The notes below the pieces were generated by a model. It was not told the DNA's origin. It saw only the letters and a list, made by a program, of their open reading frames with translations, and searched no databases. DNA of 61,406 nucleotides from an uncultured Gammaproteobacteria bacterium (GTDB lineage Bacteria > Pseudomonadota > Gammaproteobacteria > SZUA-140), in the NCBI GenBank assembly GCA_945787155.1, contig CALZHD010000034.1, positions 1 through 61,406 on the forward strand. Direction: 5' to 3'. How positions within the stretch are numbered: the first letter of the stretch is position 1; every line of letters begins with the position of its first letter. Shown here piece after piece: positions 3,400 through 60,345 of the stretch. The position numbers were made by a program, and so were the translations under genes.

Positions 3400-3415
3400 T
3401 GGCACTCCATTTGCA
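3400..3415 (+). promoter_or_regulatory. sigma54 (-24/-12) promoter of the acyl-CoA operon
   Basis: TGGCAC-TCCAT-TTGCA is an exact match to TGGCAC-N5-TTGC, about 135 bp upstream of the thiolase start. Confidence 0.75.
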
Positions 3416-24762: not shown

Positions 24763-26505
24763 ATGGACCTACAGGCAATGATAACTGGTAAAAAGAGATG
24801 GTTGCGTTATGTGATTATTTACATAACAACACAGACATTACTATTAACAGGCTGTGAATCCCTGCCTAAAAAATGGCACGATTCAGTCAATGACAGCATC
24901 ATTACCACGCTCGAAGAAGCGCGACTCAAGCGTATCCCGGATGAGGTAAGACAGGCGATGCTGCCTGTGATAGCGGCGGACATTCCATCTCATCAACCTG
25001 AGCTAATAAAGCCTCGTTTTGACCTGACCGCCAATAAAACTCCGGCGCGCGAAGTATTTATGAGTCTGGTAAAAGGGACACCTTATAGTATGGTGGTACA
25101 TCCTGATGTCGATGGGGAAATCTCATTACACTTAAAGGATGTATCTATAGACGAAGCCCTTGATTCCCTACAACAGGTTTATGGTTACGCTTATCGCCAT
25201 GACGACAACCGTTATTACGTACTTGGAAGTGGCATTCAAACCCGTATTTTTTCCATCAATTATCTCGACCTCAACCGTAAAGGACATTCCAATACGCGGG
25301 TCTCTTCAGCGGAACTCAATGGCGCAGGCAGTAGCAGTGATAGTGGCAGTGATAGTGGCAGTGCTTCATCAACTGTCTCTCACGGCATCCAGATCAAAAC
25401 AGATTCTGAAAATGATTTCTGGAAGGAGTTGCAACTGTCACTGCAAACTATCATTGGTGATAAAGAAGAGCGCCGCGTGGTGACGCACCCTCAATCCGGC
25501 CTTGTGATCGTGCGTGCCATGCCAAATGAACTTAGCATGGTGGATGATTTCCTCGGCACCACCCAGATGGTGGTTAATCGTCAGGTCATCCTGGAAGCTA
25601 AAATAATCGAAGTCGAATTGAATAACTCGTACCAGACCGGCATTAACTGGTCTGGATTAGGCACATCAGGCAACAGTTCGATTCTTGCTAGTCAGATCGG
25701 TGGCGGTTCAGTAGTGAATTCCGGTGTCAGCGAAATCGCAGGGTTTGGTGGAAACCTGCAACCAGATGGTAGCTATTCACCTATCGGCTCGGCCAACACA
25801 TCTGCATTCGGCGGTGTTTTCAGCCTCGCACTCAAGGCACGTAAATTCTCCGCCTTTCTTGAGTTCTTACAAGGCCAGGGAGATGTTCAGGTGCTCTCCA
25901 GCCCACGCGTTTCGACGGTCAACAATCAACGCGCCGTCATCAAGGTTGGCGGTGATGAGTTTTTTGTCACTGGCATTACCAGTGCTTCCACCACCAGTGG
26001 CTCAACGACAACACAAACTCCTACGGTGGAGTTAACACCTTTTTTCTCCGGTATCGCACTGGATGTTACACCACAAATAGATAAGCTGAACAATATTATT
26101 CTGCATATCCATCCTACGGTCAGCAGTGTTACCCAACGCGACAAAACCTTCGTGGTCAGCGGCGAAGCATTTAGCCTGCCACTGGCCATCAGCAATATTC
26201 AGGAATCAGACAATGTGGTTCGCGCTGAATCTGGCCAGGTGATTGTCATTGGTGGTCTTATGAAAGAGGCTAGCAGTGCTGAGAACGTCTCCATTCCGTT
26301 GCTAGGTGATCTCCCTCTGGTCGGCCAGTTGTTCAAACACCAAAAGTTGACACGCGTTAAAAAAGAACTGGTCATTCTACTCAAACCAACCGTAGTAGAG
26401 AGTGATGACGTATGGGGTGAATCGATTCAGGCCTCGCAACGACGTACTGCGGAAATAATGAATAGTCGCGCATCAAAATCGCACTTTAAAGGATCTGAAC
26501 AGTGA
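24763..26505 (+). CDS. mshL: MSHA secretin MshL (lipoprotein)
   Basis: LLTGC lipobox, RQVILEAKIIEV, SSPRVSTVNNQRAVIKVG, ELTPFFSGIALDVTPQI, ELVILLKP. Confidence 0.93.
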   Translation: MDLQAMITGKKRWLRYVIIYITTQTLLLTGCESLPKKWHDSVNDSIITTLEEARLKRIPDEVRQAMLPVIAADIPSHQPELIKPRFDLTANKTPAREVFMSLVKGTPYSMVVHPDVDGEISLHLKDVSIDEALDSLQQVYGYAYRHDDNRYYVLGSGIQTRIFSINYLDLNRKGHSNTRVSSAELNGAGSSSDSGSDSGSASSTVSHGIQIKTDSENDFWKELQLSLQTIIGDKEERRVVTHPQSGLVIVRAMPNELSMVDDFLGTTQMVVNRQVILEAKIIEVELNNSYQTGINWSGLGTSGNSSILASQIGGGSVVNSGVSEIAGFGGNLQPDGSYSPIGSANTSAFGGVFSLALKARKFSAFLEFLQGQGDVQVLSSPRVSTVNNQRAVIKVGGDEFFVTGITSASTTSGSTTTQTPTVELTPFFSGIALDVTPQIDKLNNIILHIHPTVSSVTQRDKTFVVSGEAFSLPLAISNIQESDNVVRAESGQVIVIGGLMKEASSAENVSIPLLGDLPLVGQLFKHQKLTRVKKELVILLKPTVVESDDVWGESIQASQRRTAEIMNSRASKSHFKGSEQ

Positions 26506-41642: not shown

Positions 41643-42659
<1,017 letters not shown>

Positions 42660-42865: not shown

Positions 42866-43846
42866 TTACGAGGGTGACGCCATTACAAATGGATCCGCAT
42901 GAATATTCTTCAATGATGCTCCCACTAAAAAAGCCTTCCTTTTGGTGTTATTTACCATCTCAGGGTTCCCACAGAGAAAAACCTGCCACTTCGCCAACGA
43001 TGGCTGCTGTGCAAATGCAATATCATTTGGAAAACCCAATGACATCCCCGCTGGCAAATCACCCTCTGCTACGTCTGAGAGACATGGAAAATAACTGACA
43101 TTCTCATGAGTCTCGACAAGCTGACGCAGCTCATCGACATAATAGAGATTCTCAGGCTTCATTGCACCATGGCAAACGATAATTGGCCGATCATAACCAC
43201 GACCCAGGGCATCACGTACAATCCCCCACAGCGGCGCTAGACCTGAACCAGTGCCAACAGCAAGTAACCCATCCCCATTGGTCTCATGATAAAAACATTC
43301 GCCCATTGGGCCGGTGATTGTGAGCCGATCACCTGTCTGAACATCGTCACATAACCAGTTACTCACCACCCCGCCAGGGACACGTTTGATATGCAATTCA
43401 AGCATTTCATCCACATCCGGCACTGAGGCCAGTGAATAACTTCGGATCAAGTCGCCCTTGAAGATATTGATGAACTGTCCGGCGCGATACTCAAAGGATT
43501 CGCTACATTTCAGACGCAGGCGCAAAATCTCATCATTAAGAAATGAACGTTCTACCACCTCCATCTGATACTTGTGATTGTGAGCATCATCAAGCAAGGC
43601 AACCTCAAGATCTTCATCTGGCCTGCAGACACAGGCCTTAAAATAGCCCAGTGATTTCTGAGTCTCCTTGAGGTCATCCTGAGAACCAGGTGGTGGCGTG
43701 CCTTTAATCGCTTGCATGGTACAGGCCTGACATGCGCCACTCTCACATGAATACGGTACGCGGATCTCATTTCTCAACAGACACCGCAACACCGACTCAT
43801 CGTCCAGCCGTTCATATGAGCGACCTTGATAGACGACTTTTGACAT
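42866..43846 (-). CDS. 2Fe-2S ferredoxin / FAD / NAD(P)H oxidoreductase
   Basis: YSCESGACQAC, RSYSLAS, GGVVS, GTGSGLAP, LCGNPEMV. Confidence 0.92.
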   Translation of the reverse strand: MSKVVYQGRSYERLDDESVLRCLLRNEIRVPYSCESGACQACTMQAIKGTPPPGSQDDLKETQKSLGYFKACVCRPDEDLEVALLDDAHNHKYQMEVVERSFLNDEILRLRLKCSESFEYRAGQFINIFKGDLIRSYSLASVPDVDEMLELHIKRVPGGVVSNWLCDDVQTGDRLTITGPMGECFYHETNGDGLLAVGTGSGLAPLWGIVRDALGRGYDRPIIVCHGAMKPENLYYVDELRQLVETHENVSYFPCLSDVAEGDLPAGMSLGFPNDIAFAQQPSLAKWQVFLCGNPEMVNNTKRKAFLVGASLKNIHADPFVMASPS

Positions 43847-43874
43847 AATAATTTCCCTTAACTTTGCAGGATTA

Positions 43875-44243
43875 TTACTTACCTAACACATCGTTACGCG
43901 TGCTTTCTGCAATGGCCGCAGCTTCACCGATTAGATCATCCGGCACACCTAGCTCCTGTAATGTTGCACCAAGGTGTTCCATCACGGCATCGAAATGGGA
44001 GTCATTCAAACCACGCTCAACCAGGTGGGCGTGTCCTTTACGCATGTCCTCACCGGTGTAATTATTTGGACCGCCCATCACCATTGTCAGAAAGGCCTTC
44101 TGCTTGGCGGCCTGCTTATCCATATCGACATCACTAAAAAAACCACTGATTCGATCATCAGCAAGCACTTTGCGATAAAAAAGATCAACTGCTGCATTTA
44201 CCGCCGCTTCACCACCAATTTTTTCATAAAGACTTTGACTCAT
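43875..44243 (-). CDS. Group I truncated haemoglobin (GlbN-like)
   Basis: SLYEKIGG, FYRKVLAD, GGPNNYTG..MRKGH, HFDAV..HLGATL. Start ATG 44243. Confidence 0.95.
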   Translation of the reverse strand: MSQSLYEKIGGEAAVNAAVDLFYRKVLADDRISGFFSDVDMDKQAAKQKAFLTMVMGGPNNYTGEDMRKGHAHLVERGLNDSHFDAVMEHLGATLQELGVPDDLIGEAAAIAESTRNDVLGK

Positions 44244-44447: not shown

Positions 44448-44476
44448 AAAAAAAAAGGGCGCCGATTATGGCACCC
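44448..44476 (-). terminator. Rho-independent terminator
   Basis: 7-bp stem with one G-U pair, 6-nt loop and nine U residues. Confidence 0.85.
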
Positions 44477-44530
44477 AATATCGAGGGAGGGAGAAAAGTA
44501 AAAAAGCAGATGCTTCTTTACTCTTTTCAC
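44448..44530 (-). ncRNA. Candidate sigma54-dependent small RNA (~83 nt)
   Basis: 5' hairpin, unpaired CUCCCUCCCUC, then terminator GGGUGCC-AUAAUC-GGCGCCC-U9. No ORF inside. Confidence 0.6.
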
Positions 44531-44539
44531 TTACATACA

Positions 44540-44557
44540 AAGCACCAAGCATGCCAA
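44540..44557 (-). promoter_or_regulatory. sigma54 promoter
   Basis: Minus strand TTGGCATGCTTGGTGCTT (GG-N10-GC). IHF-like AAACAATAACTTA at 44576-44588. Confidence 0.6.
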
Positions 44558-44734
44558 GAACAATATCAAAAGAAAAAACAATAACTTAATAATTCACATT
44601 TTCATACGGCGCCAAAATTAGCAATAGAATGTGTGCTAAATGAGCAGATACTTAAGGATTTGCGTCAAATTCCCCTCTCCATTGGCAACAAAATGACGAT
44701 AAATCTTATGCAGTAAATCAGCTAAGAGGACATC

Positions 44735-59816: not shown

Positions 59817-60345
59817 TGGCACTCAAGGCAACTATTTTCAAACTTGACCTTCAGGTTGACAATATTGATCGTCACTACTATCAGACACACACGCTGACGA
59901 TTGCCCGCCATCCGTCGGAAAACAATGAGCGCATGCTATATCGGATCATTGCATTCGCCCTGAATGCACATTGCTCTTTACCAAAGGGATTAGCAGCATC
60001 GATGAGCCTGATCTGTGGCGTCATTCGGCCAGCGGCGAGATCGAACAGTGGATTGAACTTGGGCAGCCGGATGAAAAACGGCTGCGCAAGGCGTGTGGCC
60101 TGGCACGTCAGGTGCTAGCCTACAGTTACAGCGCGAGAAGTGGTCCAGTATGGTGGCAACAGCTCTCCGAACGCACAAAAAACAGCCGTAATCTCTCCGT
60201 TGCCCAGCTCTCCATCAATAGTGACTGTCCCATCGACTCGCTGGTAACGCGCCAGATGCAGCTCAACTGCACGATTCAGGATGGCACGATTTGGCTGACC
60301 AACAGTACTGAGACCCTGGAGGCTTCTATCCAATCTTTTACGTAG
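59816..60345 (+). pseudogene. yaeQ: YaeQ family protein, frameshifted near 59970
   Basis: MALKATIFK...ARHPSE..ERM..R..AFALNAH in one frame; LFTKG.S..DEPDLW...WIELGQPD...CTIQDG in another (59971-60345). Confidence 0.88.

Follow-up and report, generated by a model that had tools for sequence, protein, structure and literature searches.

A predicted small RNA gene with a sigma-54 type promoter and an anti-Shine-Dalgarno seed is conserved in a lineage of uncultured Gammaproteobacteria

Small RNAs (sRNAs) under the control of the alternative sigma factor sigma-54 (RpoN) have been described from several groups of bacteria. The Qrr sRNAs are free-standing genes with upstream activator sites, and their RNAs have a structure of four hairpins. 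Qrr sRNAs of Vibrionaceae are described as having sigma-54 promoters (PMC10162802), as are GlmY and GlmZ of Enterobacteriaceae and NcS25 of Burkholderia (PMC3045617, PMC10117139). For Campylobacter jejuni, an RpoN-linked sRNA, CJnc230 (FlmE), is reported (PMC11187230). MmgR (alpha-r8) of Sinorhizobium and its relatives is described as an alphaproteobacterial RNA of 77 nt that is Hfq-dependent, NtrC-induced and carries an anti-Shine-Dalgarno (anti-SD) motif, and RpoN as well as RpoD promoters are listed for it (PMC7143759). Here we compare with these systems a locus in a 61,406-nt stretch of DNA from an uncultured gammaproteobacterium (hereafter, the window), for which a sigma-54-dependent sRNA had been proposed.

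The original prediction described an IHF-like site, a -24/-12 promoter, a 5' hairpin, a C-rich single strand and a terminator with nine U residues, and direct reading of the minus strand found each of them in its place. The promoter (TGGCATGCTTGGTGCT, 44541-44556; TGGCAT-N5-GTGCT) was recovered by pattern search. Taking the C of its GC doublet (44542) as -12 places the predicted transcription start at G44530 (± 2 nt), and the predicted transcript would thus span about 83 nt (44448-44530). The IHF-like site (TAAGTTATTGTTT, 44576-44588) lies at -32 to -20 from the first base of the -24 element and has one mismatch to the reverse complement of what we take to be the IHF consensus. In the minimum-energy fold the RNA begins with a hairpin (44491-44528) with a 14-bp core and the loop AUCU, followed by a C-rich seed (CUCCCUCCCUCGAUAUU, 44477-44493) that is unpaired in both the minimum-energy and the centroid folds except for two weak closing pairs. 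The seed core, CUCCCUC, is complementary to G-rich Shine-Dalgarno sequences. A G+C-rich terminator hairpin of seven pairs, six of them G-C (44457-44476; terminator scan), and the U tract (44448-44456; direct reading and terminator scan) complete the RNA. The predicted 83-nt RNA has a folding energy of -30.2 kcal/mol, compared with -13.6 ± 2.7 kcal/mol for shuffled sequences (z = -6.13), and none of 200 shuffles was as stable. A covariance model of the family, in which the 5' hairpin is helix 1 and the terminator helix 2, matches 44449-44529 with 82.7 bits.

A comparison with Rfam, proposed as a check in the original prediction, covered the window and 16 homologous loci, and no family reached its gathering score in any of them. 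At a relaxed threshold the best match was RF00519 (suhB/MmgR), with 24.8 bits in the window against a gathering score of 41 and with 25.5-33.0 bits, all sub-threshold, in 7 of the 16 homologues. The aligned part comprises UUUC..CUCCCU..GA..UU, the terminator hairpin and the U tract, i.e., the anti-SD motif precedes the terminator in both families, and the 5' hairpin lies outside the match. On paper the RNA therefore resembles MmgR, with which it shares a similar size, the anti-SD CUCCCU stretch, a Rho-independent terminator and a link to RpoN, but at these sub-threshold scores it falls outside RF00519. The two differ in that MmgR is alphaproteobacterial and NtrC-induced, whereas the RNA of the window occurs in gammaproteobacterial metagenome-assembled genomes (MAGs) and NtrC sites were not found at its promoters.

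The other systems are more distant. Like the Qrr sRNAs, the RNA is specified by a free-standing gene with a sigma-54 promoter, but it has two hairpins and one copy in its own genome. The Rfam model for Qrr (RF00378) had no match in the window even at E up to 10, and none of the nine sigma-54 activators of the genome reaches the cut-off for LuxO (the best with 367 bits against 800). GlmY, GlmZ and NcS25 likewise share transcription from a sigma-54 promoter and, as far as they are described in the sources cited above, differ in sequence, activator and targets; the RNA of the window has no Rfam match. CJnc230 would be a parallel in regulatory logic if the flagellar regulator FleQ drives the RNA studied here. 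It arises by processing of the flgE mRNA and has a flagellar gene beside it, whereas the RNA of the window has its own promoter away from flagellar clusters; the two have no sequence relation, and any flagellar link of the latter is presumptive.

An initial DNA search of 41 related genomes detected the region in ten, including its own, with the seed and terminator as the best-conserved part. All 11 copies retrieved by this search carry a -24/-12 element at the same distance. The covariance model, built from an alignment of the transcripts only, then gave a total of 19 copies, spread over 18 of the family's 36 genomes and 6 of its 11 genera (labelled g1 to g11); the taxonomic order comprises the same 36 genomes. 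There is exactly one match in the own genome. With that genome excluded, matches were found in 8/9 genomes of g1, 1/1 of g6, 3/3 of g7, 1/1 of g8, 1/1 of g10 and 3/3 of g11, and none in g2 (0/4), g3 (0/3), g4 (0/8), g5 (0/1) or g9 (0/1). The sole g1 genome without a match is 74% complete, and its contig with the neighbouring kinase gene begins inside the gene next to it. In eight genomes of the sRNA-less genera the syntenic region upstream of the kinase was found without the promoter-seed unit. What is known of the wider distribution rests on 150 further families sampled from the class, in which the model had no match. A pattern scan of a named genome collection (at least 119 stretches) included, among the 80 matches listed, eight true ones, all in MAGs labelled Chromatiales, Chromatiaceae or Gammaproteobacteria and with scores equal to those of family genomes already found, as well as one further marginal match (E = 0.92). 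One genome, G006, has two nearly identical copies on separate contigs (L015 and L030, on C311 and C58), one of which is only 1.6 kb long; these may be a duplication or strain variants within the bin.

The structure is maintained across these copies. RNAalifold, applied to the transcript alignment, predicted 20 pairs, of which six have compensatory changes, and this free prediction gave the same two helices as the model. In the 19-sequence model alignment, used for all pair counts and biased towards the structure by its fit to the covariance model, 91.8% of cells are paired, compared with 45.8-58.8% when the partners are slid. Thirteen of the 20 pairs have changed on both sides, and none of 500 shuffles reaches the covariation score. 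The changes fall in both helices, with 8 of 13 pairs changed on both sides in the 5' hairpin and 5 of 7 in the terminator, where 100% of cells are paired. At least 17 of the 19 copies retain the seed core CTCCCTC.A, and all 19 end with a run of at least six T. In its 3' half the seed has CGAUAUU in g1 and CAAGAUU in g7 and g11. The apical loop of the 5' hairpin is C-rich too in seven of the nine g1 genomes, a feature that has been lost in the copy of the window and in that of G001. The proposal of an unannotated sRNA gene is supported in the relatives, where the comparison that had been suggested for a conserved promoter, a conserved seed and stem covariation found all three, in 19 copies from 18 genomes of six genera.

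Conservation of the promoter, on which the prediction had staked itself, extends beyond the close relatives. The -24/-12 element, with its GG and GC doublets and canonical spacing, lies at a fixed distance in 18 of 18 homologous loci. The T of the -24 element is 24-28 nt from the start of the covariance model in 17 of them, and in the remaining locus the element lies 17 nt before the model start and the model match extends further 5'. All nine matches outside g1 (eight new from the model, and G014) have TGGCAT-N5-NTGC(A/T) about 10 nt before the model start. Because the covariance model contained no promoter sequence, the presence of the element upstream of its matches is independent support for the promoter. 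The call relies on what we take to be the sigma-54 -24/-12 consensus. In the window, the pattern TGGCAY-N5-KTGCW occurs four times, once at the sRNA, compared with 0.49 expected, and one of 100 shuffles reaches four. Perfect matches to the IHF consensus occupy the same promoter position in G023, G018 and G014. The own genome encodes rpoN (Sigma54_DBD match, 234.9 bits) and ihfA (above cut-off). A sigma-70 promoter with TTGGCG as the -35 element was considered and rejected, as on visual reading the -10 candidates were poor and variable.

Comparison of the available genomes shows a conserved gene, the type of its promoter and its structure, and we regard the locus as a real, conserved and previously undescribed non-coding gene with a sigma-54 promoter, i.e., a new family of a known type of regulator. 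We infer that it is transcribed. As an explanation of the whole locus, a free-standing, sigma-54-driven anti-SD sRNA of about 83 nt is the probable one. Sigma-54 RNA polymerase would transcribe the non-coding RNA from the -24/-12 promoter on the minus strand (44530-44448), which would require IHF to bend the DNA and an enhancer-binding protein to bind some 60-110 bp upstream. Three parts would follow one another in the product, namely the 5' hairpin, the unpaired C-rich seed and a Rho-independent terminator ending in a long U tail. This layout matches that of Hfq-associated base-pairing sRNAs: the terminator with its U tail and the unpaired seed are present and hfq is found in the genome, and the RNA presumably depends on Hfq. 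Its most likely mode of action would be pairing of the C-rich stretch in trans with the ribosome-binding sites of target mRNAs, which would block their translation; repression would then act by masking of the Shine-Dalgarno sequence.

Any G-rich Shine-Dalgarno sequence could be a pairing partner of the seed, and a search of the own genome for targets brought up no specific candidate. Its top-ranked target, a Porin_7 gene (-30.1 kcal/mol), was rejected as specific, since 5 of 37 composition-preserving shuffles of the seed match or beat this energy, and as conserved, since the gene occurs in 2 of the 36 genomes without a conserved orthologue. Motifs complementary to the seed occur before ATG codons in 34 of the 36 genomes, with or without the sRNA alike. 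As a conserved target flhF was also set aside, since its G-rich Shine-Dalgarno sequences are found only in g1; the energies of its cognate duplexes lie between -8.9 and -22.2 kcal/mol (g7, g10 and g11 left out). Among the matches listed, published occurrences of the seed string were in papers on eukaryotic miRNAs or lncRNAs.

Two motifs upstream of the promoter had been put forward as possible activator sites, and both are present on the minus strand. One of them (TGCTAATTTTGGCGCC, 44608-44623) contains a T-rich run followed by TG(A/G)C (TTTTGGCGCC, 44608-44617), with TGGC at -58. This proximal element is the more widely conserved, being found at -58 to -60 in all nine g1 promoters, in g6 and in G050 (11/18). 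The other is a PilR-type palindrome (TGCTCATTTAGCACA, 44632-44646), which scores 16.0 with a matrix of pilA sites (0.2% of random windows score as high); a site of this type is kept in only 4 of the 18 promoters. Farther upstream, a distal block (GGGGAATTTGACGCA, 44661-44675) has TTGACG at -112 and is kept at -110 to -125 in all nine g1 promoters and in g6. No other upstream hexamer is shared as widely as TTGACG, which 13 of 18 promoters have, compared with a shuffle maximum of 10; in g1 and g6 it lies at -59 and at -110 to -125. No shared palindromic dyad upstream of the sRNA spans more than two genera among the 18 promoters.

The own genome, whose assembly is 94.5% complete, encodes nine enhancer-binding proteins, whose genes each score more than 150 bits. 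NtrC and RtcR exceed their own cut-offs; the others are one NtrX-like, one FleQ-like and one FleR-like protein, two proteins with PAS domains and two that are PilR-like. Among the nine, FleQ is the best lead, because the geometry of the sRNA promoter matches that of the fleS promoter, just downstream of fleQ. In every one of the 16 genomes compared, the fleS promoter combines TGAC at about -58 with an IHF-like site at -32 to -20, and in the own genome the promoter of the fleS-like kinase gene next to fleQ has a single TTTGAC at -59. The same arrangement, TG(A/G)C at -58 to -60 with an IHF-like site at -32 to -20, is found at 11 of the 18 sRNA promoters (all of g1, g6 and G050). Four further sRNA promoters (g7 and g10) have TG(G/A)C 9-10 bp, or one helical turn, farther upstream, where in g7 it overlaps the start codon of the kinase gene; those of G024, G019 and G016 are without TG(A/G)C at that position. 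In Pseudomonas, fleSR is described as dependent on FleQ and sigma-54 (10.1101/2021.08.29.457346). The element common to the fleS and sRNA promoters is only 4-6 bases long, and FleQ as the activator is our best guess from the promoter comparison, put forward tentatively.

Also in favour of FleQ, inverted repeats of the form GTCAA(W)..(W)TTGAC, which resemble the FleQ consensus proposed for P. aeruginosa (PMC6120874), occur at only two of 23 sigma-54-like promoters of the own genome, those of fliL and of a GGDEF gene. The published consensus is itself described as unreliable genome-wide (PMC6120874). The GGDEF gene (G000:C111:2913-3899) encodes a diguanylate cyclase and has the FleQ-box-like repeat at -108 of its sigma-54-like promoter. 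Phyletic correlation was rejected as a test of the activator, as the FleQ domain occurs in 34 of the 36 genomes, including genera without the sRNA, and PilR orthologues occur in 29; both are too widespread to discriminate.

The same sRNA might instead be driven by another enhancer-binding protein, which we regard as possible but unlikely. Candidates are the type IV pilus regulator PilR, NtrC (in analogy to MmgR) and a protein that the assembly lacks. For PilR, palindromes at about -90, at the same position in G000, G001, G002 and G007, score 12.0-18.1 (values reached by at most 1.1% of random windows), and the wide occurrence of PilR orthologues in the family fits as well. Such a site is absent from 13 of the 18 promoters and weak (5.1) in G003. 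Moreover, the sRNA promoters have a single site, whereas pilA promoters across the family have two 15-bp TGC-N9-GCA palindromes exactly 20 bp apart; the matrix was built from 26 such sites upstream of pilA in 16 promoters. NtrC is encoded in the own genome and MmgR is described as NtrC-induced (PMC7143759), but 17 of the 18 sRNA promoters do not rise above background when scanned with the NtrC consensus as we assume it to be (no more than 8 of 12 bases match), compared with 10 of 12 at the glnK control. The repeats flanking the genes of the two PAS-domain activators are absent upstream of the sRNA. NorR, suggested by a neighbouring globin gene, was rejected, since no activator reaches the NorR cut-off.

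The survey of these promoters also brought up several further features. The pilA promoters carry a TGTGAC..GTCACA-like element nearer the promoter, and there are two pilR-pilA loci, on G000:C172 and G000:C3 (L199 and L228), whose PilR proteins are 81% identical. Sigma-54-like promoters precede two paralogous NMT1-like genes (G000:C41:8157 and G000:C110:1419), one of them divergent from a PAS-domain activator gene, with three TACGAA..TCGTA-type repeats ahead of each. Another lies before a type III glutamine synthetase gene (G000:C2:61705).

Returning to FleQ, membership of the sRNA in a FleQ-activated flagellar class II regulon, through which the motile or c-di-GMP state would be passed on to the translation of mRNAs with G-rich Shine-Dalgarno sequences, is a doubtful reading that we mention for its consequences. 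To our knowledge, few post-transcriptional regulators are known in the sigma-54 flagellar cascade of polar flagellates. If the reading is true, Gammaproteobacteria would have in this RNA their first flagellar riboregulator that depends on sigma-54 and FleQ and has its own promoter, and the RNA might share a deep ancestry with the RpoN-linked MmgR of Alphaproteobacteria. The FleQ link, if true, would also offer a testable case of post-transcriptional control within that cascade. If it is false, the RNA is one more sigma-54-dependent anti-SD sRNA, useful for annotation and unsurprising. With this gene, a lineage for which MAGs are the only source, and in which transcripts could so far not be used to discover sRNAs, gains a well-supported sRNA family that had escaped annotation, and the covariance model with its 19-sequence alignment could seed a new Rfam family.

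The genomic context bears on a second alternative, raised in the original prediction, in which the RNA is a terminated leader or attenuator, i.e., the sigma-54 promoter serves a downstream operon of globin and reductase genes and the hairpin-terminator controls read-through. On the same strand of the window, a truncated globin gene (Bac_globin) begins some 200 nt downstream of the RNA, and a consensus scan found no other promoter for it. A truncated globin gene and a ferredoxin-reductase-like gene also follow the sRNA in G001, G004, G005 and G016. The globin gene lies 3' of the sRNA only in part of g1 and in g8, and the downstream gene is HDOD-like in G009, G003 and G002, VanZ-like in g7, g10 and g11, and another gene again in G007. 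The conserved neighbour is on the other side, a divergent gene for an FGGY-family kinase, which directly adjoins the sRNA in g7, g10 and g11; in g1 and g6, one or two inserted genes lie between them. That the downstream gene differs between genera argues against a globin leader. The strong terminator, paired and followed by at least six U in every copy, also speaks against control of read-through, as do the lack of an alternative anti-terminator pairing in the window sequence when inspected by eye and the fact that the most conserved part is an unpaired stretch, and not a fold resembling a ligand pocket. We consider the leader very unlikely. The globin gene and the gene after it (42866-44243, minus strand), which has 2Fe-2S, FAD-binding and NAD-binding domains, look like a two-gene counterpart of flavohaemoglobin.

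A tiny protein-coding or dual-function transcript is the least credible alternative and can be given next to no weight: contrary to the original statement that no ORF fits in the ~83 nt, visual reading found a 28-codon frame on the sRNA strand, from GUG at +1 to UAA just past the U tract and below the 30-aa limit of the ORF listing, and a 38-codon frame is open on the opposite strand (44468-44584), but the 28-codon frame is not conserved in the 18 homologues, where stops and frame-shifting indels interrupt all three frames. The longest antisense ORFs of the homologues measure 0 to 50 aa, with sequence in common only among close relatives, and no reading frame on either strand is conserved among the 19 copies.

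Elsewhere in the window, the other three matches to the promoter pattern, all on the plus strand, are at 3400-3415, 25971-25986 and 60101-60116, the first of them 134 nt ahead of an ORF of 395 aa. An ORF for an ABC-type ATPase on the plus strand (41643-42659) has a long, His- and Asp-rich C-terminal tail (HDHDHD...), which suggests a metal-related transporter.
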